A DNA stretch of 64,000 nt from Thermodesulfobacteriota bacterium (GTDB taxonomy: Bacteria > Desulfobacterota > Desulfobaccia > Desulfobaccales > 0-14-0-80-60-11): positions 7,557-71,556 of the forward strand of contig JBMORF010000060.1 of NCBI GenBank assembly GCA_049322315.1. The letters run 5' to 3'. The notes below the pieces were generated by a model, which worked only from the letters and a program-made list of their open reading frames with translations, did not search any database and was not told the DNA's origin. Of the stretch, positions 7,741 to 50,178 are shown in pieces. Numbering within the stretch: the stretch's first letter is position 1; each line of letters starts with the position of its first letter. The position numbers were made by a program, and so were the translations under genes.

Positions 7741-9320
7741 CAGAACTGAAAGTAGATGAACTCCGTATCATGTTCCGTGGAGGAGACAATCAACAGGAGC
7801 AGCAAGGCGTAGAGCAAACCCCGGGCCGGCCAGGGCAGGCGGCCCAGGCTGGTTTCGTCCCGGTATTTCCAGGTCAAAATCTGGAGCAGAAGCAACGGCG
7901 CGATATGGATCAAGAGCCAGAGGAAGGAGGAGGCCCAGGGCAGACTGATGCCGGTCTGCCAATGGCCCAGGGCTGCCAGCCAAAGCCCCAACTGGTGGAC
8001 ATTGGCGCTCCGGAAAATGGCCCAACCCCCCAGGGTAAAAATCCACATTAGAGCCACGGCCAGGATGCCCCGGCCGAGGGAAGATGATTTCTCATCCCCC
8101 AGGGACCGCAGGGCCGGCGCCACCCGGTAAAGGATGAGCAGGACCCCGTGGTAGGCCCCCCAGAGGACAAAGACCCAATTGGCCCCGTGCCACAGGCCCG
8201 CCAAAAGCATGGTCACCGCCAGGTTGCGGATCGTCTCCCATTTGGTGCCCCGGTTGCCCCCCAAAGGAATATAGAGGTAATCCCGGAACCAGGTGGACAG
8301 GGAAATATGCCACCGGCCCCAAAATTCCGAGGGATTCCGGGAAAAATAGGGAAAGCGGAAGTTTTCCGCCAAATCAATCCCCAAAAGCTTGGCGGAGCCC
8401 CGGGCAATGTCCGTATACCCGGAAAAATCCCCATAAATCTGAAAGGCGAAGGCCACCACCCCCAATACCGCCCAATAGCCGTTCAGGGGGGTCCCGGGGG
8501 CGAAGGCATAGTTGGCCAGAATGGCGCAATTGTCGGCCACGAAGACCTTTTTAAAAAAACCCACCAGAATCAAACACATTCCGTCATGGAGGTGGTCCGG
8601 GGTAAAAGCTGTGGTCCGTTCCAACTGCGGAATTAAGTGCCGCCCCCGTTCGATGGGACCGGACACCATCTGGGGGAAAAAGGCGTCATAAGTGGCGAAA
8701 GTCAGGAGCGAAGCGCAGGCCGGAGATTGTCCCCGGTAAACGTCGATGACGTAACCCAGAGACTGAAAGGTATAGAAGGAGATACCCACGGGCAGGATAA
8801 TCTGCAGCAGCACCCGGTTGGGTTGCAGCCCCATGAAGGTCAGAAAAGTATGGGCGGAGTCCAGGAAAAAGCCGAAATATTTGAAAAAACCCAGGATGCT
8901 CAGGCAAAAGCCGATACTGAGTATCAAATAAGGTCGGCGGCGCTTTTCCGGGGCCAGGCGCCAAATGATTTCGTGTCCGGCAAAAAAAGCCAGTCCCAGA
9001 GCCCCGGCCGCGGCCACGATGACCAAATTGATGCCGGCCGCGGGCAGAAACAGGGAGCAACCGGAGAGCCAGACCCCGGGCAGCAGGGCCAGGAGCAAAA
9101 CCCATAACGTGCCCGTCTTTTGACCATCGATGGTCAGGGCGCAGAGATAATCGATAACCGTGGTGGCCAGCACCAGGGCCAGAAAACGCACGTCCCAACA
9201 GGCGTAAAAGAAGTAGCTGGCAATCAGTAGCAAGACGAGCCGCCCCCTGCCCGGCAGTTGCCAGTACAGCAGCAGGACCAGGGGCAGAAACAGCAGATAT
9301 TGCCAGGTGATGAAGGACAT
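7740..9320 (-). CDS. MBOAT family O-acyltransferase (AlgI/DltB/PatA-like)
   Basis: 526-aa polytopic protein with the MBOAT signature WHISLSTWFRDYLYIPLGGNR and a conserved His (GLWHGANW). Confidence 0.9.
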   Translation of the reverse strand: MSFITWQYLLFLPLVLLLYWQLPGRGRLVLLLIASYFFYACWDVRFLALVLATTVIDYLCALTIDGQKTGTLWVLLLALLPGVWLSGCSLFLPAAGINLVIVAAAGALGLAFFAGHEIIWRLAPEKRRRPYLILSIGFCLSILGFFKYFGFFLDSAHTFLTFMGLQPNRVLLQIILPVGISFYTFQSLGYVIDVYRGQSPACASLLTFATYDAFFPQMVSGPIERGRHLIPQLERTTAFTPDHLHDGMCLILVGFFKKVFVADNCAILANYAFAPGTPLNGYWAVLGVVAFAFQIYGDFSGYTDIARGSAKLLGIDLAENFRFPYFSRNPSEFWGRWHISLSTWFRDYLYIPLGGNRGTKWETIRNLAVTMLLAGLWHGANWVFVLWGAYHGVLLILYRVAPALRSLGDEKSSSLGRGILAVALMWIFTLGGWAIFRSANVHQLGLWLAALGHWQTGISLPWASSFLWLLIHIAPLLLLQILTWKYRDETSLGRLPWPARGLLYALLLLLIVSSTEHDTEFIYFQF

Positions 9321-9431
9321 CAGGCGCTAACCCTGTCGGGAGATATAATCATTTATTCTACCCCTTGAGGGAGGGGGCGGGCAAGGAATTCGAACTCCGT
9401 GTAGTGCATCATTTTGAAAATGAGTGGGAAT

Positions 9432-9455
9432 AAAAAAGCGGCCCAGAGGCCGCTT
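9432..9455 (-). terminator. Rho-independent terminator after the small ORF 9496..9690
   Basis: The minus strand reads AAGCGGCC-tctg-GGCCGCTT followed by TTTTTTA. Confidence 0.6.
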
Positions 9456-9495
9456 GGAGAAGGGTTTTTTCAGGTGTGATAATTCATCACAAAGG

Positions 9496-9690
9496 TTATC
9501 CAGTAAGGAATTTTTTATAGCCGTAACGTTCGGTATCTTGGGGCGTAGGCACTCCGGAAATCTTCTTGGGGATTATTCCCCTTTCCCGTTTGTCATCAAG
9601 AAGGCGCCTGATTCTAATTAGATCAGGCCGTCTATCCTCCATTTCCCTTTTGACATCCAATAAATCTTTGAAGTTTTTTCTTTCAGACAT
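9496..9690 (-). CDS. Hypothetical small, highly charged protein (64 aa)
   Basis: AT-rich ORF 12 nt downstream of the Clp-fold protease gene. No family recognised. Confidence 0.4.
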   Translation of the reverse strand: MSERKNFKDLLDVKREMEDRRPDLIRIRRLLDDKRERGIIPKKISGVPTPQDTERYGYKKFLTG

Positions 9691-9702
9691 GACCTTATCT
9701 CC

Positions 9703-10626
9703 CTAAAAGTAGTTCTTGCTGTGAAGAAAGATCGTGTAATCTGATCGCTGGATAAACTCCACCAAAAAATCGTGATAGTCTCTGATCATGGTGCGAAGCG
9801 GGACATCATTTGAATAATCATCGATTTTTAAGCGGAGAAGACCAGTGATAGTGTTTATTCCTATCTTTCGCCCATGAGAATGCCATAATTTGTTATCTGA
9901 AAGCATCTTAGCTATTTCTTCGGCACGTTCTTCCTTTTCCTCTAAAATTACAGGAGATCCAAGTCTCTCAGGATTCGTTTGGTGAGTATCCCAATTGGCG
10001 AATTTATATTGTACTAGCCATTTTTTCAGCAATGTAATGGTGAGGTTTTTGGCCTGCTCATATGAGCTCAATTGAGCTAGGTCAAGCTGTTGAAGCATAA
10101 CCAATTCTGCATCAGTTATGTTCCCTTCTGCTGACTTTTTAATCATTTTCTCGACTTGGTCGAGATATCCCAGCGCCGGAGCATAATCCTTTCCTGTAAA
10201 TACCTGCGGATCAATAGGCCCCAAGGAGGAGGAATAATCCATGAAGATTTTGTTTCCAGACATGCAAAAAATTGTCCCGGCGGACATGGCATAATCAGGG
10301 ACTACAAAATAAACCTCATCATAGTGGAACCTGATAATGTCGACTAACTTCTCAACAGTCTCAGCTACCCCACCAGTGGTCGTGAGAAATATAGTGACTG
10401 TTTGCTTGTCGGTGAATTCAGATTTGAGCTTTTCTAGAAAATCTCGAAATATTTTTTCGATTGGCGGAATTATTGGCCCATAAACGGACACAATGTCCGA
10501 TGAAAACTGATTCTCCAATCTCTTGAGGCGTTCATTGAGGCTGTCCCTTATATGGGTGTCAAAAATTCGTATGGCCATATGAGCATCACCTTCTGAACCT
10601 TCATTTAGACAGTAAATATTTTCCAA
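9703..10626 (-). CDS. SDH-family Clp-fold serine protease (SppA/ClpP-like)
   Basis: LTTTGGVAETVEKLVDIIR and VVPDYAMSAGTIFCMSGNKIFM resemble the Clp/crotonase-fold S49-like (SDH) family. Visibly AT-rich. The start could instead be Met17 (10578). Confidence 0.6.
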   Translation of the reverse strand: MENIYCLNEGSEGDAHMAIRIFDTHIRDSLNERLKRLENQFSSDIVSVYGPIIPPIEKIFRDFLEKLKSEFTDKQTVTIFLTTTGGVAETVEKLVDIIRFHYDEVYFVVPDYAMSAGTIFCMSGNKIFMDYSSSLGPIDPQVFTGKDYAPALGYLDQVEKMIKKSAEGNITDAELVMLQQLDLAQLSSYEQAKNLTITLLKKWLVQYKFANWDTHQTNPERLGSPVILEEKEERAEEIAKMLSDNKLWHSHGRKIGINTITGLLRLKIDDYSNDVPLRTMIRDYHDFLVEFIQRSDYTIFLHSKNYF

Positions 10627-10697
10627 TCCTATGTCAACTCATTTGCACAAAATGACCCAATACCCAACTACCATAGTCGGGGACGATTAAGGTTTCC

Positions 10698-11369
10698 TCA
10701 GCCTAGCCGGGCCGATACCAAAATCCGGGGTTCTTGGCTAAAAGGCAGATGGTAGCGGTGAAGTTCTAGGGTCCTTAATCCCAAAGAAAGGCACCGCTCC
10801 TGGGCTGCCTCCATCTCCTCCGGCTTCAGGTTCGGCCCCTTGAGGGCCAATACCCTGCCTCCGGAGATAAGCAGAGGGGCCGCCAGTTCCAGAAAGCGAA
10901 TCAGGGGAAAAGTAGCCCGGGAAGTCACTGCCGAAACACGCGGACCCCATTGCCGGGCGAGTTTAAGGGTAAGGTGCACCTGGACCACCTTCACTCCTTC
11001 TATTTTTAGCAAGGATACCAGGTATTCCAGGAAAGCCGCCTTCTTGGCCCGGGCTTCCACCAGGGTGAGGGTCATCTCCGGCCGCGCCAGTTTCAGCGCC
11101 AACCCCGGAAATCCCGCCCCGCTCCCCAAATCCGCCAGAGAGGCCGCCTCCCCCAGAAAAGGCAAGACCGCCAGGGAATCCAGAAAATGTTTGCTGATAA
11201 TATCCTGTTCGGTTGTTAGCCCGGTGAGATTGACCCTAGCGTTCCAGCGCTGCAGTTCCTCTAGATATAAGCGGAATTGGTCGAATGCCCGGGGGAGGAG
11301 TTCCAGCCCCAAGTGGGAGACTCCTTCTTGGAATAAATCCAAAGGCTGAGAATGGGAAAGGCGGATCAT
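10698..11369 (-). CDS. rsmG: 16S rRNA (guanine527-N7)-methyltransferase RsmG (GidB)
   Basis: LADLGSGAGFPGLAL SAM motif. Start moved to Met32 of the track ORF (ATG at 11369) to avoid overlap with mnmE. Confidence 0.85.
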   Translation of the reverse strand: MIRLSHSQPLDLFQEGVSHLGLELLPRAFDQFRLYLEELQRWNARVNLTGLTTEQDIISKHFLDSLAVLPFLGEAASLADLGSGAGFPGLALKLARPEMTLTLVEARAKKAAFLEYLVSLLKIEGVKVVQVHLTLKLARQWGPRVSAVTSRATFPLIRFLELAAPLLISGGRVLALKGPNLKPEEMEAAQERCLSLGLRTLELHRYHLPFSQEPRILVSARLG

Positions 11370-11422
11370 TGTAAAGGTAGCTCGGCTAAAAAAAAGTATA
11401 CAATTGAAGAAGTGGCTTGGGG

Positions 11423-11443
11423 TCCTGACCCCTGACCCCTGCA
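11423..11443 (+). repeat. Heptamer array YCCTGAC x3
   Basis: tcctgac ccctgac ccctgca, 3 nt from the mnmE stop (11447-11449, minus strand). Confidence 0.8.
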
Positions 11444-11446
11444 ATC

Positions 11447-12829
11447 CTACTTTCCCAAGCAAAACTCCCCGAAAATGCGGTCCAGGACGTCGTCCCCCAC
11501 TTCCTGGCCGGTGATCTCCCCCAGTTCCCGGATGCCTTCCTGGAGGTCCAGGGCCACCAGTTCCCAGGGGGCCTCGCCTGCCAACAGGAGGTTCCGGGCC
11601 TGGCGCAGGTTATCCCGGCAGCGGCTCAGGTGCCGGTAATGCCGGGCCTGGGTGACGATTTCCCCGCTGGTGTTCAGGCCCCCTTTCAGGGTCAGGTCCA
11701 CGATCCGGGCCTTCAGGTCGTCAATGCCTGCCCCGGTGAGGGCGGAGATTTTGGTAATGGGGAGAGAAGTCGCCCCTTTTAACTCGGCCAGGGCCAGTTC
11801 CTGGGGCAAATCCACCTTATTGATGACCGCCAGGCCGACTCTGTCACCGATTTCCTCCAGATCTTGCCGGGCCTCCGGGGTTAAAGGCTGGCTGCCGTCC
11901 ACCAGGTAAAGCAAGACATCCGCCTGGGCCAGACGCTCCCGGGTGCGCTTGATGCCCAGTTCTTCCAGCCGATCCTGGGCCGGACGCAGCCCCGCGGTAT
12001 CGCTGAACCGCACCCTTACTCCCCCCAACGTGATAACCTCCTCCACCAGGTCCCGGGTGGTGCCGGGAATCTCGGTGACGATGGCCCGCTCCTGGGCCAG
12101 GAGGCGGTTGAGCAGGCTGGATTTGCCCACGTTCGGCGCGCCGGCGATCACCACCAGCAACCCTTCCTTAAGGAGGCGGCCTTCCCGGTAGGAGGCGGTG
12201 AGGGCCTCCAAAGCCTCAAGGGGTGGAACCAAATCCGCGGCCAAGGCTCCGGCCGGTATTTCGGCGGTCTCTTCCGGAAAATCCAGGGCCGCTTCCACCC
12301 GGGCCAGGTGATCCAGGAGGGTTTCCCGAAGCTCTTGCAACTCCCGGCCCAGATGCCCCTGCAGATGCTCTGCGGCCACCCGCACCCCCGCTTCGGTCCG
12401 GGCCTGGATTACTTCCAGGACCGCCTCCGCCTGGGTGAGATCGATGCGCCCGGAGAGAAAGGCCCTTAAGGTAAATTCCCCTGGCCGGGCCAGGCGCGCC
12501 CCGGAGGCCAGGGTCAGCTCCAGGAGGCGCTGCAACACCCCCCAGCCGGAATGGCAGTGAATTTCCACCACGTCTTCCCGGGTGTAAGTACGGGGCCCCC
12601 GCATCAAAGCAAGGAGCACCTCGTCGATGACCTCCTGGGAGGCGGGGTCGACGATCTGGCCTAGATAGAGATGGTGGGAGAGGAGTTGGGGCCGGGGGTG
12701 GCGGGGACGGAAGAGAGACCGGGCGATACCTGCGGCGTCCGGGCCGCTAAGGCGGACGATACCGATGCCCGCCTCACCCAGGGGGGTGGAGATGGCCGCA
12801 ATGGTGTCGGCCGCGTCTTTCGGCGTCAT
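11447..12829 (-). CDS. mnmE: tRNA modification GTPase MnmE (TrmE)
   Basis: G1 motif GAPNVGKSSLLN, DTAG, NKVD, and the C-terminal FCLGK tail. Confidence 0.95.
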   Translation of the reverse strand: MTPKDAADTIAAISTPLGEAGIGIVRLSGPDAAGIARSLFRPRHPRPQLLSHHLYLGQIVDPASQEVIDEVLLALMRGPRTYTREDVVEIHCHSGWGVLQRLLELTLASGARLARPGEFTLRAFLSGRIDLTQAEAVLEVIQARTEAGVRVAAEHLQGHLGRELQELRETLLDHLARVEAALDFPEETAEIPAGALAADLVPPLEALEALTASYREGRLLKEGLLVVIAGAPNVGKSSLLNRLLAQERAIVTEIPGTTRDLVEEVITLGGVRVRFSDTAGLRPAQDRLEELGIKRTRERLAQADVLLYLVDGSQPLTPEARQDLEEIGDRVGLAVINKVDLPQELALAELKGATSLPITKISALTGAGIDDLKARIVDLTLKGGLNTSGEIVTQARHYRHLSRCRDNLRQARNLLLAGEAPWELVALDLQEGIRELGEITGQEVGDDVLDRIFGEFCLGK

Positions 12830-22333: not shown

Positions 22334-22683
22334 GCAGTGAGCAGCAAGCAGTTAGCGGTGAGCAGTTGTTTTCTTCTGGCCACTGGCCACTGACTACTGG
22401 CCACTGACTACTGGCCACTGACTACTGGCTACTGACTACTGGCTACTGACTACTGGCTACTGACTACTGGCTACTGACTACTGGCTACTGACTACTGGCT
22501 ACTGACTACTGGCTACTGGCTACTGACTACTGGCTACTGGCTACTGGCTACTGGCTACTGACTACTGGCTACTGGCTACTGACTACTGGCTACTGGCTAC
22601 TGGCTACTGACTACTGACTACTGACTACTGACTACTGGCTACTTAGTATTGATTACTGATTTGAGTTCGCTGATCGCTGTTCT
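22334..22683 (+). repeat. Giant phased heptamer array, 50 units (350 bp)
   Basis: The core 22376-22641 is 38 perfect units: 4 CTGGCCA, 18 CTGGCTA and 16 CTGACTA. Degenerate in-phase units flank it (GCAGYRA on the 5' side, CTTAGTA..CTGATCG on the 3' side). The array starts 2 nt after the mqnA stop. Confidence 0.97.
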
Positions 22684-27999: not shown

Positions 28000-28863
28000 A
28001 TGTTTCTTCAGCAATTACTCAACGGTTTGACCGCCGGGGCCGTTTACGCCCTGATAGCCCTGGGTTACACCATGATCTATGGTATCCTTGGTCTGATCAA
28101 TTTCGCCCAGGGTGAGATTTATATGTTCGGGGCCTTTGTGGCGGTCCTGCTCCTGGGCACCGGCCAGGTCAATTTTTTTGTGGCCTTTGCCGCCGGCATG
28201 GCCGCCGCCGCCCTCCTGGGTGTGGTTTTGGAACGGGTGGCCTTTAGGCCCCTGCGGGGGTCCCATCCCTTAGTCCCCTTGATCAGCGCCATTGGCGCCT
28301 CCATTTTTCTCCAGAGCCTGGCCCTGCTGCTTTTCGGCCCCAATGACCGGCCCTTTCCCATCCAGTTTAATTTCCGCAGCATCACCATTGCCGGGCTGCC
28401 CCTCTCCAGCCTCCAGGGGGCCATTCTGGTTGCGGCCCTGGGATTCATGGTCCTGCTCCTGCTTTTTGTCCGTTATACCAGATACGGCAAGGCCATTGTC
28501 GCCTGTGCCCTGGATCAGGATACGGCCCGGCTGATGGGCATCAATGTCGACCGCATGGTGGCCCTCACCTTTCTCATCGGCTCCGCCCTGAGCGGCGCCG
28601 CGGGGATCATGATGGCCATTTACTACAATGCCACCTACCCCCGCATGGGGCTCCTGCCCGGCCTCAAGGCCTTCAGCGCCGCCATCCTCGGGGGAGTGGG
28701 GAACATTCCCGGAGCCATCCTGGGGGGGCTGCTCCTGGGGGTGGCCGAGAGCCTGGGCGCGGCCTATGTCTCCTCCGGTTATAAAGACGCCATCGCCTTT
28801 GCCATCCTCATCCTGGTGCTTCTCTTCCGGCCCCAGGGCATTTTGAAGGGCCGGGGAGACTGA
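28000..28863 (+). CDS. livH: Branched-chain amino acid ABC transporter permease LivH
   Basis: MFLQQLLNGLTAGAVYALIALGYTMIYG is a typical LivH N-terminus. Confidence 0.9.
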   Translation: MFLQQLLNGLTAGAVYALIALGYTMIYGILGLINFAQGEIYMFGAFVAVLLLGTGQVNFFVAFAAGMAAAALLGVVLERVAFRPLRGSHPLVPLISAIGASIFLQSLALLLFGPNDRPFPIQFNFRSITIAGLPLSSLQGAILVAALGFMVLLLLFVRYTRYGKAIVACALDQDTARLMGINVDRMVALTFLIGSALSGAAGIMMAIYYNATYPRMGLLPGLKAFSAAILGGVGNIPGAILGGLLLGVAESLGAAYVSSGYKDAIAFAILILVLLFRPQGILKGRGD

Positions 28864-28864
28864 C

Positions 28865-29734
28865 ATGGCCGCCTATTTCCTGCACCTGGCCATCTTAGGG
28901 GGCATCTATATCATCCTGGCCATCAGCCTCAATCTGATCATCGGCTACGCCGGCCAGGTCTCTTTGGGACACGCCGCTTTTTTCGGCATCGGCGCCTATG
29001 TCTCCGCGCTCACCTCCCTGTATTGGGGCTTTCCTTTTCTGCTGGCGGCCTTGAGCGCCCTCCTTTTTTCCGGCCTCTGCGGCCTCCTCCTGGGACTGCC
29101 CACCCTACGGCTCAAGGAGGACTATCTGGCCATTGTCACCCTGGGCTTCGGGGTGATCGTGGACCTGGTCTTTCTCAACCTGGAGATCACCGGCGGTCCG
29201 GACGGGTTGGCGGGCATCCCCGCGCCCCGTATCCTGGGTCTCAGTTTCCGGTCCCCGGGCATGTATCTTCTGCTGACGCTGCTGATGGTGCTCTTGACCC
29301 TGGCCCTCACCTACCGCCTGGTCCATTCCTATCACGGCCGGGCTTTGAAGGCCATCCGGGATCATGAGGTCACCGCCCAGGTCATGGGCATCAACACCCC
29401 GGCCTACAAGGTGGCCATCTTTACCCTGGCCGCGGCCTTGGCCGGGCTGGCCGGTTCCTTGTATGCCCATTACATTACCTTCATCAACCCCGAGTCCTTC
29501 GGCCTTCACACCTCCATCCTGGCCCTGTGCATGGTGGTGCTGGGAGGGATGGGGTCCATTGCCGGGGCCGTGGTGGGCGCTCTGGCCCTCACCGTGCTCC
29601 CGGAAATGCTGCGCCAATTCAAGGCTTATCAGGACCTGATTTACGGGGGGCTGCTGGTCGCCCTCCTCATCTGGCGCCCTGAGGGCCTCTTGGGCCGGGG
29701 CAAATTGAGCTTGAAGTTTATCAGCAGGGAGTAA
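28865..29734 (+). CDS. livM: Branched-chain amino acid ABC transporter permease LivM
   Basis: GYAGQVSLGHAAFFGIGAY motif. Confidence 0.9.
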   Translation: MAAYFLHLAILGGIYIILAISLNLIIGYAGQVSLGHAAFFGIGAYVSALTSLYWGFPFLLAALSALLFSGLCGLLLGLPTLRLKEDYLAIVTLGFGVIVDLVFLNLEITGGPDGLAGIPAPRILGLSFRSPGMYLLLTLLMVLLTLALTYRLVHSYHGRALKAIRDHEVTAQVMGINTPAYKVAIFTLAAALAGLAGSLYAHYITFINPESFGLHTSILALCMVVLGGMGSIAGAVVGALALTVLPEMLRQFKAYQDLIYGGLLVALLIWRPEGLLGRGKLSLKFISRE

Positions 29735-29739
29735 GTGAT

Positions 29740-29898
29740 CGTTTTTGGTTTTTGGTTTTTCGTACGGTTCTCAGAAGAGTAACCGGAGGGGCGGGCCTCG
29801 GCACCCGCCACCCAAGGAAAGTTTTCCTGTTTCTCAAGTAAGCTTGATTGTTAGCAATATGAACGAAAAACGCAAAACGTAAAACGCAGAACGAAACG
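29740..29898. repeat. CGTTTTT...ACGAAAA-armed intergenic element (copy 1)
   Basis: The left arm is cgttttt ggttttt ggttttt. The right arm is acgaaaa acgcaaa acgtaaa acgcaga acgaaac. The core carries a REP-C hairpin at 29788-29809. Starts 5 nt after the livM stop. Confidence 0.9.
29788..29809. repeat. REP-C hairpin GGGGCGGGCCTCGGCACCCGCC
   Basis: Stem GGCGGG/CCCGCC. A second copy lies at 41074-41095. Confidence 0.8.
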
Positions 29899-29917
29899 TC
29901 AAGAATCATTTTACAGC

Positions 29918-30643
29918 ATGCTAACCCTCAAAAGCGTCCAGGCCGGCTACGGCAAATTAACGGTCCTTAAGGGCATCTCCTTCCACGTGCGCCCCGGCGA
30001 GGTGGTGACCTTGATCGGCGGCAACGGCGCGGGCAAAAGCACCACTTTGCGGGCCGTCTCCGGTCTGCTGCCGCCCTGGCGGGGAGTGGTGGAATTTAAC
30101 GGCGCGGATCTGACCCGGCTGCCGCCGGAGCGTATTGTCTCCCTGGGTCTGGCCCTGGTGCCGGAAGGCCGCCGGGTCTTCGCCAGTCTCAGCGTCACCG
30201 CCAACCTGGAGTTGGGAGCCTTCCACCGCCGGGACCAGAGGCAGGCGCACCGGGACCTGGAAGAGATTCGGGAACGCTTTCCCCTTCTTCAGGAGCGGGC
30301 CTCCCAGCCCGCGGGCACCTTGAGCGGCGGCGAGCAGCAGATCCTGGCCATCTGCCGGGCGTTGATGTCCCGGCCCCGGCTGTTGATGCTGGATGAGCCC
30401 TCCATGGGCCTGGCCCCCCGCATGGTGAGCCAGGTCTACCAGATCCTCCGGGAACTGAAGAGTGAGGGCACCACCTTGCTGCTCATCGAGCAGAACGCCC
30501 GGGCCGCCCTGAAGCTGGCGGACCGGGGCTATGTGCTGGAGACCGGCCGCATCATCCTCGACGGCTCCGCGGCTGAACTCCGGGAAGACCCGGAAGTGCA
30601 GCGGGCGTATCTGGGCAAGGGCTACCGGGAAGTTTGGGAATAA
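29918..30643 (+). CDS. livF: Branched-chain amino acid ABC transporter ATP-binding protein LivF
   Basis: YGKLTVLKGISF..GEVVTLIGGNGAGKSTTL, LSGGEQQ, 241 aa. Confidence 0.9.
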   Translation: MLTLKSVQAGYGKLTVLKGISFHVRPGEVVTLIGGNGAGKSTTLRAVSGLLPPWRGVVEFNGADLTRLPPERIVSLGLALVPEGRRVFASLSVTANLELGAFHRRDQRQAHRDLEEIRERFPLLQERASQPAGTLSGGEQQILAICRALMSRPRLLMLDEPSMGLAPRMVSQVYQILRELKSEGTTLLLIEQNARAALKLADRGYVLETGRIILDGSAAELREDPEVQRAYLGKGYREVWE

Positions 30644-30648
30644 ACCGA

Positions 30649-30676
30649 CAGATTACAGCTATCAGCGGTCAGTTTA
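30649..30676 (-). repeat. Heptamer array CAGNNNW x4
   Basis: cagatta cagctat cagcggt cagttta. Starts 5 nt after the livF stop. Contains the 16-mer AGCTATCAGCGGTCAG, which also occurs inverted at 52060-52075. Confidence 0.85.
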
Positions 30677-30704
30677 AAAACACTTAGCCGCGAGAGAATT
30701 AATT

Positions 30705-31817
30705 ATGAGCGCCAAAAAAGCGATTGATTGGATTACCATCTCGGGGTTCAAGTCAATTCGTGACTTGGACCGATTTGAAATGCGTAGTTTGAATGTACTC
30801 ATCGGTGCCAATGGCGCAGGCAAGAGTAATCTTGTGTCATACTTTCGTATGCTGGGTGAGATGGTGGAAGGCCGCTTGCAAAGTTGGACCCGCAACCAGG
30901 GGTCGGCTGATCGCATCGTCAGTTTTGGGGTAAAAGAAACCAACATATTGAAATCTTTTATAGAATTTGGATTAAATGGTTACGAGTTTACTCTAACACC
31001 CACTGTAGAAGGAAGTTTTTCTTTTGTCAGCGAGAGGCTTTTTTTTTCCGGGGTTTATTTTGGTAGCGAATGGATTAACCTTGGTTCAGGTCATATAGAA
31101 TCGCAACTTAAAAATAAATATGAATCATGGAGTAAAGGTAGCGTTGCAGACTATTGCTATAGCTCCATTGCCAGTTGGAAAGTCTTTCATTTCCATGATA
31201 CCAGTGATACCGCGGGCGTAAAACGTCTGGGGTCGGTACATGACAATGAATACCTGCGCCCGGATGCTTCTAACTTAGCTGCTTTCCTATACCGCCTCTC
31301 TGATGAGAACCCCGATATTTATCAGCAGATCCTCAAGACGATCCGTTTAGCCATTCCATTTTTTGATAAGTTTGTATTGAAGCCACAAAGGTTGCCCACA
31401 GAAGAAGAACAGATTAGGCTTTTGTGGCGGCAAAAAGATAGTGATTACTCCCTCTGGCCAAGTCAATTATCAGACGGCTCAATCCGCTTTATCTGTCTGG
31501 TCACGGCCTTGCTGCAACCAGACCCCCCTTCCACTATTATTATCGATGAACCGGAACTAGGCTTGCATCCTTACGCTATCACCTTATTAGGCTCATTGTT
31601 GCGCTCAGCATCCAAACGGATGCAAGTGATCGTTTCTACCCAGTCGGTGCCTTTGGTGGATGAATTTTCAATTGAAGACTTGGTAATCGTAGAACGCGAA
31701 CAGGAAGAGACCGTCTTCAAACGCTATAATGAAGAGGATTTCAAAACATGGTTGGAAGAGTACTCAATTGGTGAACTTTGGGAGAAGAATATCCTCGGTG
31801 GGAGGCCGCGCAAATGA
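30705..31817 (+). CDS. ABC/SMC-type (AAA_21/AAA_15-like) ATPase, stand-alone
   Basis: Walker A LIGANGAGKSNL, signature-like QLSDGSIRF, Walker B IIIDEPELGLHP, H-loop region VSTQS. AT-rich (a hand count of 60 nt at 31000 gives about 33% GC, against about 75% at 30301 in livF). Confidence 0.8.
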   Translation: MSAKKAIDWITISGFKSIRDLDRFEMRSLNVLIGANGAGKSNLVSYFRMLGEMVEGRLQSWTRNQGSADRIVSFGVKETNILKSFIEFGLNGYEFTLTPTVEGSFSFVSERLFFSGVYFGSEWINLGSGHIESQLKNKYESWSKGSVADYCYSSIASWKVFHFHDTSDTAGVKRLGSVHDNEYLRPDASNLAAFLYRLSDENPDIYQQILKTIRLAIPFFDKFVLKPQRLPTEEEQIRLLWRQKDSDYSLWPSQLSDGSIRFICLVTALLQPDPPSTIIIDEPELGLHPYAITLLGSLLRSASKRMQVIVSTQSVPLVDEFSIEDLVIVEREQEETVFKRYNEEDFKTWLEEYSIGELWEKNILGGRPRK

Positions 31818-32494
31818 CCCGCGTGCACGTGATTTGCGAAGGCCAAACCGAAGAAACGTTCGTCAATGAGGTTCTATACGATTGGTTCCATCCCAGGGGA
31901 ATATATCTTTTTCCATCTCTGATTGGCAAACCTGGACATAAAGGCGGCAAACTGAAATTCCAGCGACTCCTGATCGACATACGAGGAAGACTGATGGGTG
32001 ATAAGGCCGCCTATTGCACAACATTTTTTGATTTCTATGGCCTTCCAAGCGACTTTCCGGGCAAGGAAAATGCCCGGTTAAAATCTAACATCGCCGACAA
32101 AGCGGAGTGTGTGATGCAGTCCTTGAGTGCACAATTGCAAGGCAAGTTAGGGGAAGAACCGCTTCGCAGGTTTATTCCCTATGTGCAGATGTATGAGTTC
32201 GAAGGACTTCTGTTCAGTGAACCTGAAATATTAGCTCAAAGTATTTCCCAATCACAGCTTGCCGGCACTTTCCGAAAAATTCGGGACGGATTTAACTCTC
32301 CCGAGGAAATAAATGACGATCCAGAGAAAGCTCCAAGCAAGCGTATCTTAGACTTTTTTACAGCATACGATAAACCGGTATACGGTTCACTTGCCGCTTT
32401 GGAGATTGGCTTGGCAGCTATTCGCCGTGAGTGCGCTTTATTTAATGGATGGTTAGAACGGATTGAGTCATTGCCAACCGAGGTTATCGCATAA
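31814..32494 (+). CDS. DUF4276-like small protein (possible TOPRIM-like effector)
   Basis: 226 aa starting at the ATGA overlap with the ATPase stop. N-terminus RVHVICEGQTEETFV (strand plus conserved EG/acidic motif, as I recall for DUF4276). AT-rich. Confidence 0.55.
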   Translation: MTRVHVICEGQTEETFVNEVLYDWFHPRGIYLFPSLIGKPGHKGGKLKFQRLLIDIRGRLMGDKAAYCTTFFDFYGLPSDFPGKENARLKSNIADKAECVMQSLSAQLQGKLGEEPLRRFIPYVQMYEFEGLLFSEPEILAQSISQSQLAGTFRKIRDGFNSPEEINDDPEKAPSKRILDFFTAYDKPVYGSLAALEIGLAAIRRECALFNGWLERIESLPTEVIA

Positions 32495-32531
32495 GGGGAT
32501 TCGAAAGCCTCTAAAAACAGTAATCCAACAC

Positions 32532-33293
32532 ATGGAATTATTGACAGTCAATCAACTCACGAAATACTTCGGGGGCGTCAAAGCCGTCGACGGGGTTTCT
32601 TTCGCCGTGGACCAGGAGGAGATCGTCGGTCTCATCGGTCCCAACGGCGCGGGCAAGACCACCTGTTTTAACCTCATCAGCGGCTTGCTGCCTCCCACCG
32701 GCGGCTCGGTCAGCCTCCTGGGGCGCAACCTGGGTAGCCTGGCTCCTTATTACCGCTCCCGCCGGGGCCTGGCCCGCACCTTCCAGAATATCCAGCTCTT
32801 CGGGGGCATGAACGTTTTGGAAAACGTCCTCACCGGTTGCCACCAGCGCCAGGAAGTGGGCGCACTCCGGGCCCTGTGGCCCGGGCGGGGAGTGCGCCGG
32901 GCTGAAGCCCACGCCCGGGAACGGGCCCGGGAGCTCTTGGAGTTGGTGGGCCTGGCGGAAAAGGCGGATTTCCCTGCGGACGCCCTGGCCTACGGGGAAC
33001 AGCGCCGCCTGGAAATCGCCCGGGCCTTGGCCCAGGAACCCAAAGTGCTCCTCTTGGACGAGCCGGCCGCGGGCCTCAACTCCCGGGAGACCGAGGACCT
33101 GATGACCCTGCTCCAGGAACTTAGGGAGCGGGGCATTACCCTGTTGATCATTGAGCATGACATGACCCTTATCATGGGACTCTGCCATCGGGTGGTGGTG
33201 TTGGACCACGGCCAGGTCATCGCCGCGGGCCCGCCCTCCGAAATCCGGCGGGACCCCCGGGTGATCGAGGCCTACCTGGGCCGGGAGGATTAA
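32532..33293 (+). CDS. livG: Branched-chain amino acid ABC transporter ATP-binding protein LivG
   Basis: LTKYFGGVKAVDGVSF..IVGLIGPNGAGKTTCFN, YGEQRRLEIARAL. Start at MELLTV. Confidence 0.9.
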   Translation: MELLTVNQLTKYFGGVKAVDGVSFAVDQEEIVGLIGPNGAGKTTCFNLISGLLPPTGGSVSLLGRNLGSLAPYYRSRRGLARTFQNIQLFGGMNVLENVLTGCHQRQEVGALRALWPGRGVRRAEAHARERARELLELVGLAEKADFPADALAYGEQRRLEIARALAQEPKVLLLDEPAAGLNSRETEDLMTLLQELRERGITLLIIEHDMTLIMGLCHRVVVLDHGQVIAAGPPSEIRRDPRVIEAYLGRED

Positions 33294-33298
33294 CAGAT

Positions 33299-33578
33299 CG
33301 TTTTACGTTTTTCGTTTTGCGTTTTCCGCATGCTTATTCGATATCAAAATGGCTGGAGGGGTTTCCGTTCCTTTCCAGCTTGTAAGAAATAAAATTCTTT
33401 ATCAAAGGTTTGTTACCCGTAGGGGCGAACCTTGTGTTCGCCCGGCATCCGGGACGAAAACAAATTTCCGTAAGTAAAATCAGTGATTGATGAAGAATTG
33501 GCACTGGCAGACTGGATCTTGCGACCAGGCAGGTAAAGAAAATACGAAAAACGCAAATCGGAAAACGAAAAACGGAGA
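33299..33578. repeat. CGTTTTT...ACGAAAA-armed intergenic element (copy 2)
   Basis: The left arm is cgtttta cgttttt cgttttg cgttttc. The right arm is acgaaaa acgcaaa tcggaaa acgaaaa acggaga. The core contains REP-A at 33422-33443. Starts 5 nt after the livG stop. Confidence 0.9.
33422..33453 (+). repeat. REP-A copy GGGGCGAACCTTGTGTTCGCCC(GGCATCCGGG)
   Basis: 7-bp stem GGGCGAA/TTCGCCC. Same 22-mer as at 57763. Confidence 0.9.
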
Positions 33579-37375: not shown

Positions 37376-37906
37376 ATGGGAGAATCTATCAAGAAAAGGT
37401 CTAATGGCAAATCCGGTGGCACAGGCGTCTCGCCTGTGCACTCCTTTAAGATCACCCGCAGGAACCTGCCACACTGGCAACTGCCGGAAAGTGTTTACTT
37501 TATCATTTGGCGAAGTAAGGATTTTCAAGTTTTATCACCGGAAGAACGCACCATTACTTTAGAAGCCATTAAATATTGGGAAGGCCGCAAATGGACAGTC
37601 CATGCGGCGGTGGTCATGCCGGATCATGTCCATCTACTGGGTCAACCACTGGCTCTGCCTGGAGGTGGATTTGTTAATTTGGCTAAGATTATCCATAGCA
37701 TCAAAAGCTATTCCAGCCACGAAATAAATAAAAAGCGAGGTACGACAGGCTGCATCTGGCAGGATGAAAGGTTTGACCGCATCGTTCGGGATGAGGATGA
37801 ATTCTTGGAGAAATGGCGGTATATCAGAAATAATCCGGTTAAAAATGAATTGGCGGAAAATCCCGAAGATTACCCCTGGCTGTATGAGAATGTGAGTGAA
37901 GAATGA
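37376..37906 (+). CDS. REP-associated tyrosine transposase (RAYT, IS200/IS605 Y1 family)
   Basis: RRNLPHWQ N-terminal motif, HUH motif MPDHVHLL, and catalytic Tyr region WRYIRNNPVK. The 5' end overlaps REP-B, so the true start is uncertain. Confidence 0.8.
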   Translation: MGESIKKRSNGKSGGTGVSPVHSFKITRRNLPHWQLPESVYFIIWRSKDFQVLSPEERTITLEAIKYWEGRKWTVHAAVVMPDHVHLLGQPLALPGGGFVNLAKIIHSIKSYSSHEINKKRGTTGCIWQDERFDRIVRDEDEFLEKWRYIRNNPVKNELAENPEDYPWLYENVSEE

Positions 37907-41373: not shown

Positions 41374-42399
41374 ATGCCATCGCTTAATGAAGCAGATTTT
41401 GTCGAGATTTTTCGCCGGGATTGGGCGGAGTTGTGGCCCTTGCTGGCCGAGGCCCAGAGCCTCCGGGAGCGCCATTTCGGCCGGGAGGTCAGTTTCTGCG
41501 TCATCACCAACGCCAAGTCGGGACTCTGTTCCGAGGATTGTGCTTTTTGTTCCCAGGCGGCCGGCGCTAGGGGAGAAATTCCCCGCTACCCCCTGTCGCC
41601 CCAGGAAGAGTTGGTGGCGGCCGCGGCCCAGGCCGCCGCAGCCGGAGCCTCCCGCTTTTCCCTGGTGACTTCCGGCCGGGGCCTTAACTCCCCCAAAGAG
41701 CAAGAGGCCCTGCTGCGCACGGTGGCCGCCATCAAGGAGACCGTCCCTATCCGGGTCTGCGCCTCCCTGGGGATTGTGGAGCCAAGCTTTCTCAAGGAAT
41801 TAAAAGCCGCGGGCCTCTCCCGTTATCACCACAATCTGGAGGCCGCGGCTTCCTTTTTCCCTCAAATTTGCACCACTCACTCCTATGCCGAACGGGTGGC
41901 CACCATCGAGGCGGCCCGGGCCGCGGGGCTTTCCGTGTGCGCCGGGGGTATTCTGGGATTGGGTGAGTCTCTGGCTCAGCGCTGGGAACTGGCCCAGGCC
42001 TTGAAAGACTTGCCGGTGGATGCTATCCCTCTCAATTTTCTGCACCCATTGCCGGGAACCGGCCTGGCCCGGCGGCCTTTGCTGCCGCCCCTGGAGGCCC
42101 TGCAGATCATCGTCGCTTTCCGCCTCCAACTCCCGGACCGGTCCCTCATCATCTGCGGCGGCCGCCAGGCGACTTTGCGTTCCCTGGCGCCTTTGATCTT
42201 CGCTGCGGGGGCCAACTGCCTGATGACCGGGGACTACCTGACCACCAAGGGCCGCCTCCCGGAGGAGGACCGGCAGATGCTAACCGACCTGGGCCTGGAA
42301 TTGGCGCAGGAAGGAATAGTGAGCAGCGAGCAGCAAGCAGTGAGCAGTGGCCAGTGGCCAGTAGCCAGTGGCCAGTGGCCAGTAGCCAGTGGCCAGTAG
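41374..42399 (+). CDS. bioB: Biotin synthase BioB (with repeat-encoded C-terminal tail)
   Basis: Radical SAM motif CSEDCAFCSQ. The last 27 aa or so (SSEQQAVSSGQWPVASGQWPVASGQ) are translated from the heptamer array. Confidence 0.9.
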   Translation: MPSLNEADFVEIFRRDWAELWPLLAEAQSLRERHFGREVSFCVITNAKSGLCSEDCAFCSQAAGARGEIPRYPLSPQEELVAAAAQAAAAGASRFSLVTSGRGLNSPKEQEALLRTVAAIKETVPIRVCASLGIVEPSFLKELKAAGLSRYHHNLEAAASFFPQICTTHSYAERVATIEAARAAGLSVCAGGILGLGESLAQRWELAQALKDLPVDAIPLNFLHPLPGTGLARRPLLPPLEALQIIVAFRLQLPDRSLIICGGRQATLRSLAPLIFAAGANCLMTGDYLTTKGRLPEEDRQMLTDLGLELAQEGIVSSEQQAVSSGQWPVASGQWPVASGQ

Positions 42400-42477
42400 C
42401 CAGTAGCCAGTGGCCAGTGGCCAGTGGCCAGTGGCCAGTAATCAGTAATCAGTGATCAGTGATCAGTAATCAGTGAA
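42317..42477 (-). repeat. Phased heptamer array CAGTRGC / CAGTRAT, 23 units (161 bp)
   Basis: tagtgag cagcgag cagcaag cagtgag, then 13 units of cagtggc/cagtagc, then cagtaat x2, cagtgat x2, cagtaat, cagtgaa. It is the reverse complement of the 22376-22641 family. The bioB stop TAG (42397-42399) lies inside a unit. Confidence 0.95.
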
Positions 42478-48184: not shown

Positions 48185-48271
48185 GCGGTGAGCGGTGAGC
48201 GGTGAGCAGTAATAAGTAATAAGTAATAAGTAATAAGTAATAAGTAATAAGTAATCAGTTAATAGTGGGCA
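48181..48271 (+). repeat. Phased heptamer array GTGAGCG x4 then GTAATAA x6 and variants (13 units)
   Basis: The first unit contains the iorA stop TGA (48182-48184). Confidence 0.95.
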
Positions 48272-50073: not shown

Positions 50074-50178
50074 GCTATTAGTAATAAGTGATAAGTAATA
50101 AGTGATCAATTATTAATAAATTCTTATGACTTATGACTTATGACTTATGACTTATGACTTATTACTTATTGCTGTCTA
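50074..50178. repeat. Inverted heptamer arms GTRATAA x4 / CTTATGA x5 plus CTTATTR (15 phased units)
   Basis: Starts 3 nt after the archease stop and ends 2 nt before the rtcB ATG. Confidence 0.95.

Follow-up and report, generated by a model that had tools for sequence, protein, structure and literature searches.

The 64 kb stretch of Thermodesulfobacteriota DNA analyzed here (hereafter the window, to whose numbering all coordinates refer) carries, between the livF- and livG-like genes of a liv-type transporter operon, two open reading frames (ORFs) on the same strand, ORF1 and ORF2, which are joined by an ATGA overlap at 31814-31817 (Table 1) and which almost certainly represent a member of the HEC-01 family, an ABC-type ATPase paired with a DUF4276 protein. 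The operon is otherwise an ordinary one, with two BPD_transp_2 permeases followed by two ATPases with ABC_tran and BCA_ABC_TP_C domains and by an AMP-binding ligase, and its wider neighborhood is a core-gene region that includes UbiD/UbiX/UbiA, MnmE, RsmG, and FtsK. The sizes, coordinates, overlap and quoted motifs of the two ORFs reported in an earlier note on this DNA were all found to be as claimed, and so was its description of an AT-rich insert in the liv operon. The segment 30644-32531 has, in fact, a guanine-plus-cytosine content (GC) of 0.45, compared to 0.65-0.67 in the flanking genes, and GC at third codon positions (GC3) is 0.46 in the cassette versus 0.78-0.85 in the flanks, while single 60-nt lines give 0.75 at position 30301 and values of 0.28-0.38 near 31000. 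Nowhere else in the window does GC fall this low over 1.9 kb, the nearest competitor being located at 8.8-9.5 kb, with 0.46. Because no terminator-like site or credible plus-strand promoter was found between 30600 and 32530, and the spacers around the pair measure only 61 nt (livF-ORF1) and 37 nt (ORF2-livG), the pair is most likely transcribed together with the liv genes, as judged from the sequence, and ORF2 is most likely coupled to ORF1 at the translational level.

Table 1. Features in and around the cassette, in window numbering
Feature	Position	Strand	Basis or remark
livF-like ABC transporter ATPase, upstream flank	29918..30643	+	Pfam ABC_tran 6e-31 and BCA_ABC_TP_C; native GC 0.665
Host spacer with period-7 array (ACCGACA GATTACA GCTATCA GCGGTCA...)	30644..30674	+	Common to the cassette-free relative L002
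Cassette-borne leader, probably a decayed BREX pglX 3' end, with the left copy of the border 8-mer inside	30675..30704	+	Alignment with the L041 leader
ORF1, HEC-01A, OLD/SMC-like ABC ATPase, 370 amino acids	30705..31817	+	PADLOC, Pfam, AlphaFold2 model
ORF2, HEC-01B, DUF4276/TOPRIM-like putative nuclease, 226 amino acids	31814..32494	+	Pfam, PADLOC, AlphaFold2 model
Right spacer, tentatively a decayed BREX pglZ 5' end, with the right copy of the border 8-mer inside	32495..32531	+	Local alignment with the L053 pglZ start
livG-like ABC transporter ATPase, downstream flank	32532..33293	+	Pfam ABC_tran 5e-32 and BCA_ABC_TP_C 3e-12; native GC 0.65

Family membership is seen in both proteins. When compared with the HEC-01 models of PADLOC-DB v2, ORF1 matched HEC-01A (PDLC04175) with an E-value of 8e-147, its residues 4-368 aligning on model positions 3-362 of 363, and ORF2 matched HEC-01B (PDLC04188) with an E-value of 4.5e-77 over residues 1-220, so that the A model, the B model, and adjacency on the same strand, here with the ATGA overlap, are all found at this locus. 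The partnership is also a stable one, as ORF2 directly follows ORF1 in 78 of the 80 metagenome loci retrieved with ORF1, the other two being cut by contig ends, and NCBI already holds a protein identical to ORF2, labelled 'DUF4276 family protein [Thermodesulfobacteriota bacterium]'. HEC-01 ('Hma-embedded candidate 01') was introduced in 2024 by Payne et al. (bioRxiv 10.1101/2024.01.29.577857), in whose description an ABC ATPase is paired with a TOPRIM protein sharing the metal site of the B. pseudomallei OLD protein. DUF4276 has further been classified as a Toprim superfamily member and identified with Mad4 of the MADS system (PMC12065111), the AAA15/21 tree published with PARIS (PMC11464382) contains ATPases linked to DUF4276, and dyads of an OLD-type ABC ATPase and a TOPRIM protein inside BREX loci were surveyed as 'back-up effectors' (10.1101/2025.10.09.681413). 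Because of the full-length HEC-01A and HEC-01B matches and of these published descriptions of HEC-01 and DUF4276, the system cannot be called undescribed, as the earlier note had proposed; the pair is already catalogued and is no new kind of immunity. It shares with the published HEC-01 the full-length matches to both models, the gene order, the 4-nt overlap, and the architecture of an ABC ATPase with a TOPRIM-like partner, but it is located outside Hma, BREX, or any defense island, in a liv-type transporter operon within a core-gene region.

In ORF1, the motifs GANGAGKSN, LSDGSIRF, and IIIDEPELGLHP are present, with the Walker A at G34-S41, the signature at S256-S259, and the Walker B at D281-E282, and Walker A, signature, Walker B, and D-loop are invariant across 52 ORF1 homologues. 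The view of this protein as a stand-alone ABC-type ATPase was supported by a Pfam AAA_21 match of 4.7e-29, which is accompanied by N-terminal matches to SMC_N and AAA_15. An AlphaFold2 model of ORF1, with a predicted local distance difference test score (pLDDT) of 87.6, had SMC/Rad50 heads and PtuA as its top Foldseek matches, with E-values of 1e-11 to 1e-13, and the predicted structure is that of an SMC/Rad50-head-like ABC ATPase, also near the PtuA proteins of Septu and of retrons. The weaker PADLOC matches of ORF1, which are to AriA, mad3, AbiLi (6.6e-21), NsnB (2e-20), Old, and GajA, amount to generic ATPase-core matches, and the GajA and Old models match residues about 257-350 only. Another feature of this protein is that the position of the H-loop histidine is taken by a glutamine (S311-T-Q313-S; 31635-31646) in 52/52 aligned HEC-01A homologues.

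The sequence MTRVHVICEGQTEETF was confirmed in ORF2 as the earlier note had quoted it, and the DUF4276-like label given there was sustained by a Pfam DUF4276 match of 2.5e-47 that covers the full model. With E-values of up to 10, ORF2 matched nothing in PADLOC and Pfam besides HEC-01B and DUF4276; a relaxed Pfam scan for Toprim and a search of NCBIfam gave no match, and a profile search of PDB sequences returned a single match, which was spurious. The AlphaFold2 model of ORF2 (pLDDT 91.5, predicted template modelling score 0.89) had as its top two Foldseek matches in the PDB the C-terminal TOPRIM regions of OLD proteins, namely 6nk8_B (E 2e-3, prob 1.0, template modelling (TM) scores 0.45/0.48) and 6njx, and these are the sole convincing PDB neighbors of the model, in agreement with the resemblance to TOPRIM/OLD nucleases that had been suggested for this protein. 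Invariant among 80 ORF2 homologues are E9, E13, E14, D73, E128, E130, K176, and R177. Residue E9 lies directly past strand 2-8, as does the TOPRIM glutamate after strand 1, and strand 67-73 ends in D73, which is followed by F74-Y75 (D-x-Y); the remaining ligands might come from the invariant E128 and E130, which follow the next strand. Based on the model, ORF2 is predicted to be a TOPRIM-fold putative nuclease.

Known systems share parts of this architecture. PARIS (AriA plus the DUF4435 TOPRIM protein AriB; PMC11464382) also consists of two genes, for an ABC ATPase and a separate TOPRIM-fold nuclease, and its ATPases fall with those of the present family within one AAA_15/21 tree; ORF2, however, belongs to DUF4276 and not to DUF4435 and lacks an AriB match, and ORF1 matches AriA (PDLC02980) in the generic AAA_21 region only, with an E-value of 6e-31 versus 8e-147 for HEC-01A. 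Mad3 and Mad4 of MADS (Maestri et al. 2024, as relayed in PMC12065111) are close as well, in that ORF1 matches mad3 (2e-24) and NCBIfam MADS3 (1.2e-27) and that DUF4276 is reported to be the Mad4 family. The MADS3 match, however, reaches 97 bits versus a cut-off of 420, ORF2 has no match to the PADLOC mad4 model, and neither mad genes nor a methyltransferase are found nearby, the neighbors being the liv genes, the AMP ligase, and UbiD/X/A. Class 1/2 OLD proteins and GajA of Gabija likewise combine an OLD-type ABC ATPase with TOPRIM, and it is OLD structures (6nk8/6njx) that best match ORF2, but in OLD and GajA the two parts are fused in one chain whereas here they are encoded by two genes; there is, moreover, no GajB helicase gene near the pair, and the DxD of ORF2 reads D-F-Y. 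Membership in Septu, AbiL, or Menshen was considered and rejected, as ORF2 matched HEC-01B only, and not the PtuB HNH protein, AbiLii, or NsnA/NsnC.

Relatives of the host were found through a LivF scan of species-representative genomes, the host clade consisting of Syntrophales/Syntrophobacterales-type metagenome-assembled genomes. Because eight of these relatives (L002-L008 and L021; LivF 78-97% identical) have the order livH-livM-livF-livG-AMP ligase with livF and livG 0-215 nt apart and lack both ORFs, the pair was acquired by the liv operon; the foreign character of the pair, which the earlier note had deduced, is thus seen in the livF-livG junctions of relatives as well as in the strong GC contrast. 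The pair is present, at the identical livF-livG site, in a sister lineage (L041-L044, L056, L057), where ORF1 is 92% and ORF2 80-83% identical to the window copies. The earlier note had reasoned that conservation inside the liv operons of relatives at native GC would imply an accessory role in transport: the same site is indeed occupied in the sister lineage, but GC there is still 0.46 versus 0.63-0.66 in the flanks, and hence not native. A role of the pair as an accessory of the Liv-type transporter would be compatible with the shared site in the window, L041-L044, and L056, with purifying selection, and with probable co-transcription, but it is difficult to reconcile with the absence of the pair from eight relatives with an otherwise identical operon, the closest one included, with a GC3 that is still 0.46 versus about 0.8, with the occurrence of homologues across phyla in unrelated contexts, mostly BREX, and with the probable pglX remnants that border the cassette (see below). 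We regard such a role as very improbable, and rejected it as essentially excluded by the absence from the eight relatives and the persistently foreign GC3.

With regard to the age of the insertion, a single blastn segment aligns the window with L041 at 84.4% identity over 28000-33376, cassette included, and the synonymous divergence (dS, Nei-Gojobori) between the two is 0.52 for ORF1 and 0.47-0.54 for livH, livM, livF, livG, and the AMP ligase. Because the synonymous divergence of the cassette equals that of its flanks, at the same site in the sister lineage, the insertion is old and was inherited vertically. The ratio of nonsynonymous to synonymous divergence (dN/dS) in the same comparison is 0.07 for ORF1 and 0.135 for ORF2. 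A recent mobile insertion was rejected, given that dS equals that of the flanks and that neither recombinase genes nor terminal inverted repeats nor a tRNA turned up, and the term 'mobile' used in the earlier note does not suit this copy, which has no integrase or transposase alongside and has remained in place over a synonymous divergence of about 0.5. The cassette-free L002 is nearer to the window (dS 0.25-0.39) than L041 is, LivF being 97% identical to that of L002 and 93% to that of L041, and the tree of the flanks is ((window, L002), L041). The simplest reading of these data is a single old gain, followed by vertical co-divergence under purifying selection and by a later loss in the L002 lineage, so that L002, the closest sequenced relative, probably lost the cassette. 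Homology between the window and L002 in blastn runs through 30681 and resumes at 32538, and where the window reads ...CAGTTTAAAAACACTTAG... L002 reads ...CAGCTTAAAAACCTGTTAG..., which fits a deletion scar and is suggestive, although the stretch is too short for proof; an alignment of the right spacer with the L002 spacer was not significant (p 0.22).

Two observations on divergence concern individual genes of this region. In ORF2, codons 64-165 (32004-32303) show a dS of 1.7 relative to L041 whereas the ends show 0.5-0.7, with a dN/dS of about 0.1 throughout, a pattern that points less to positive selection than to gene conversion, long ago, with a different HEC-01B allele. LivG (32532-33293), on the other hand, has a dN/dS of 0.14-0.20 and an amino acid identity of 86-90% versus 92-98% for LivH, LivM, and LivF; it evolves faster in all three pairwise comparisons, including the one where L002 lacks the cassette.

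The closest homologues outside the clade (ORF1 79-82% identical at the amino acid level) all have pglX and pglZ as their neighbors inside type 1 BREX operons and are dyads of the kind surveyed in 10.1101/2025.10.09.681413. In the BREX-embedded loci L050, L051/52, L053, and L054/55 the stop and start codons overlap, and the order pglX-pair-pglZ was found in at least 27 of the 80 metagenome loci. The pglX genes of 14 BREX-embedded loci were condensed into a profile of their final 85 nt. Run with nhmmer against 98 kb of sequence (window, L041, L056, and L002), it had its two best matches exactly in the spacers that precede ORF1 in L056 (E 6e-4) and in L041 (E 1e-3); the pglX-derived spacer of L056 contains GGCGACCGCATTAACAACCACC, which translates as GDRINNH, and pglX-derived sequence hence still borders the cassette in sister lineages. 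The final ~30 nt before ORF1 in the window align with the L041 and L056 spacers (0/2000 shuffles for the local alignment with the L041 leader), and this leader, 30675-30704, is now the 5' untranslated and ribosome-binding region of ORF1. Downstream of ORF2, the right spacer of the window aligns with the first codons of the L053 pglZ (GAAAGCCTC.T.AAA..CAGT; p about 0.001), and in L056 the ORF2 stop is followed by ATGAGATTAATAGAAAGGCTC, which translates as MRLIERL and matches the PglZ N-terminal consensus MR[VL]IE.L. Judging from these alignments, the cassette would be a fragment of a BREX operon, probably so on the pglX side and tentatively so on the pglZ side. It differs from the surveyed dyads in that the window locus has no BREX core genes, stubs of about 30-70 nt being left of them.

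One of the BREX-embedded loci is also worth noting for its gene structure: in L054, positions 9074-12157 encode a 1027-amino-acid product with DUF4276, in which HEC-01B is apparently fused in frame to a PglZ-like gene, whereas the near-identical L055 keeps HEC-01B and the PglZ-like gene separate (237 and 795 amino acids). A frameshift or a difference between the assemblies may account for the fusion.

The tight embedding of the closest homologues in BREX, with overlapping stops and starts, and the description of OLD-ABC plus nuclease dyads as a back-up layer of BREX (10.1101/2025.10.09.681413) could also mean that the pair acts only as a back-up effector for a BREX system elsewhere in the genome and is inert alone. 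The 64 kb window, however, contains no BREX genes, many homologous pairs stand alone beside unrelated genes, and purifying selection persisted after the separation from BREX, and we therefore deem this explanation improbable. We see a similarly slim chance that a BREX back-up dyad was domesticated in a housekeeping amino-acid ABC transporter operon and kept there, without BREX and under purifying selection, for a dS of about 0.5. If this were true, HEC-01 would work autonomously, and its expression would be wired to liv transcription, and so to nutrient status, or its ATPase might interact with the LivF and LivG ATPases.

The earlier note had interpreted the 8-mer TAAAAACA, seen at both borders of the insert, as a target duplication. 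The repeat is present, at 30675-30682 and 32512-32519, these being two of the three occurrences in the window, but the chance that two such spacers share an 8-mer is about 3%, whether judged from shuffles or from pairs of native low-GC segments, which makes the finding marginal. L041 and L056 lack the repeat, the left position reading AATAAACA and the right one TCTAAAGGCA or CAATTAGGCA; the former falls in the pglX-derived leader and the latter in the putative pglZ stub. The exact repeat is peculiar to the window lineage and is found in cassette-borne sequence. Because both copies lie inside sequence that travelled with the cassette, and because the sisters do not have the repeat, target-site duplication was rejected (p about 0.03 for the 8-mer), and neither a recombinase nor terminal inverted repeats were found in the cassette. 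A 28-nt direct repeat, 89% identical, between ORF1 (30798-30825) and livG (32631-32658) was also considered as a product of recombination and rejected, as it encodes the Walker A peptide common to both proteins (LIGANGAGK and LIGPNGAGK). As for the heptamer remnants reported on both sides of the insert, the left period-7 array is genuine and common to L002, and must therefore have arisen after the split from L041/L056, but 'CAGTAAT' on the right is a single unit and no array.

When the neighborhoods of homologues were inspected, pairs were found in BREX operons, in defense islands, on plasmids, and beside integrases, in line with what had been anticipated for a defense module. Other contexts among the 80 metagenome loci include integrases, type III restriction-modification, AIPR, PIN, AbiU, and mad genes, but also ordinary housekeeping genes, and individual loci comprise a Pseudoduganella defense island, a Cupriavidus island adjoining an integrase, a WYL-SNF2-pair-methylase cluster on an Aeromonas plasmid, and a small Acinetobacter plasmid where the pair adjoins VapBC. 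An ORF2 homologue is carried by 13 plasmid records and by no phage genome record. The homologues, at 72-82% identity across phyla, occur in unrelated contexts, mostly BREX, and in all hosts examined the cassette exceeds the neighboring DNA in AT content. These defense, mobile, and plasmid neighborhoods, together with the published contexts and assays, support a role in defense; in a cold-seep survey, one HEC-01 representative reportedly gave E. coli B protection from one or more of the phages T4, T5, and T7 (bioRxiv 10.1101/2024.09.26.614923).

Taken as a whole, it is likely that the locus holds a HEC-01 module, made of an OLD/SMC-type ABC ATPase and a DUF4276 TOPRIM-fold putative nuclease, that came out of BREX and has been inherited vertically in the liv operon. 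The module would have been excised from a type 1 BREX operon, from its position between pglX and pglZ, and would have landed between livF and livG in the ancestor of a small Syntrophales-type clade, carrying a pglX stub and, more tentatively, a pglZ stub along; vertical inheritance under purifying selection, probably with liv co-transcription, and loss in the closest sequenced relative would then have followed. With somewhat less assurance, and by analogy with other family members, we also favor the view that the window copy serves in defense. By analogy with PARIS and the OLD family, where sensing of a phage component by the ATPase and licensing of the nuclease are established, an oligomer of the ATPase could hold the nuclease inactive and sense a phage-derived trigger, ATP binding or hydrolysis could release or activate the TOPRIM nuclease, and the activated nuclease could then cut nucleic acid, be it tRNA or DNA, and abort the infection. 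That the mechanism is PARIS-like in detail is possible, but we would hesitate to assume it. Alternatively, the pair might be a toxin-antitoxin-like addiction module, whose persistence would reflect post-segregational killing or selfish retention and not phage defense. The Pfam label of AAA_21 as a 'putative AbiEii toxin' domain, the lack of a phage phenotype of HEC-01 in one screen, the homologue that adjoins VapBC on a small plasmid, and the long retention of the cassette in a housekeeping operon would all be in keeping with addiction; because the closest relative, L002, probably lost the cassette, however, the module would not be strictly addictive, and most close homologues are integral to BREX operons while one HEC-01 did protect against phage. 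We accordingly consider addiction an unlikely explanation.

A number of points weigh against a defensive, BREX-derived HEC-01 module with a TOPRIM nuclease, and need to be acknowledged. At the protein level, the Foldseek likeness of ORF2 to the OLD TOPRIM is modest (TM 0.45-0.48, E 2e-3), the canonical TOPRIM DxD corresponds in ORF2 to D73-F-Y75, where only the first aspartate is kept, and ORF2 shows no hidden Markov model similarity to AriB/DUF4435, mad4, Old, or GajA at E-values of up to 10. As to the BREX origin, the leader in the window is tied to pglX through L041 and L056 only, with no direct profile match, and a profile of the pglZ 5' end places the correct L056 position second, with a weak nhmmer E-value of 1.7. 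With regard to function, HEC-01 protected E. coli MG1655 from none of the phages used (bioRxiv 10.1101/2024.01.29.577857), the sole positive assay was reported briefly (bioRxiv 10.1101/2024.09.26.614923), and these experimental results concern other HEC-01 members and not the window copy, which sits in a housekeeping operon within a core-gene region, there being no defense genes in the 64 kb window besides the pair itself.

The value of this locus is mainly evolutionary, as it offers a dated and traceable exit of a defense dyad from its parent BREX operon. Its settlement in a core metabolic operon under purifying selection argues for a HEC-01 function that is independent of BREX or Hma, and indicates that defense genes need not sit in defense islands. 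The window and L002, moreover, make a natural pair of close relatives with and without the module, and because HEC-01 is poorly validated, members that are selectively maintained are reasonable candidates for experiments.

A few further observations were made in the window and its relatives. The second-lowest GC stretch of the window (8800-10700, about 0.46) contains the end of an MBOAT-family gene, an ORF for a ClpP-like SDH-type serine protease (9703-10626, minus strand), and the start of rsmG, and no defense or mobile genes were recognized in it. Period-7 arrays are a genome-wide feature in the host and its relatives, where they fill many intergenic spacers, often as inverted pairs that bracket one spacer (for example, with CGTTTTn units downstream of one gene and nAAAACG units upstream of the following one). 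In the window they are found at 22376-22643, 42338-42476, 48208-48264, 50123-50169, 29741-29760/29862-29896, and 33299-33325/33538-33584, and in relatives at 6727-6878 of L002 and in the livF-livG spacers of L004-L007. The arrays in the livF-livG spacers of relatives have quite different unit sequences, and three relatives are without any spacer, so that period-7 arrays seem to form and be replaced rapidly; in the window/L002 lineage, the pglX stub was partly overwritten by one of them. Lastly, a 176-amino-acid ORF at 37376-37906 (plus strand) carries an IS200-like Y1 transposase domain (Pfam Y1_Tnp 1.5e-6) and might encode a REP-associated tyrosine transposase.

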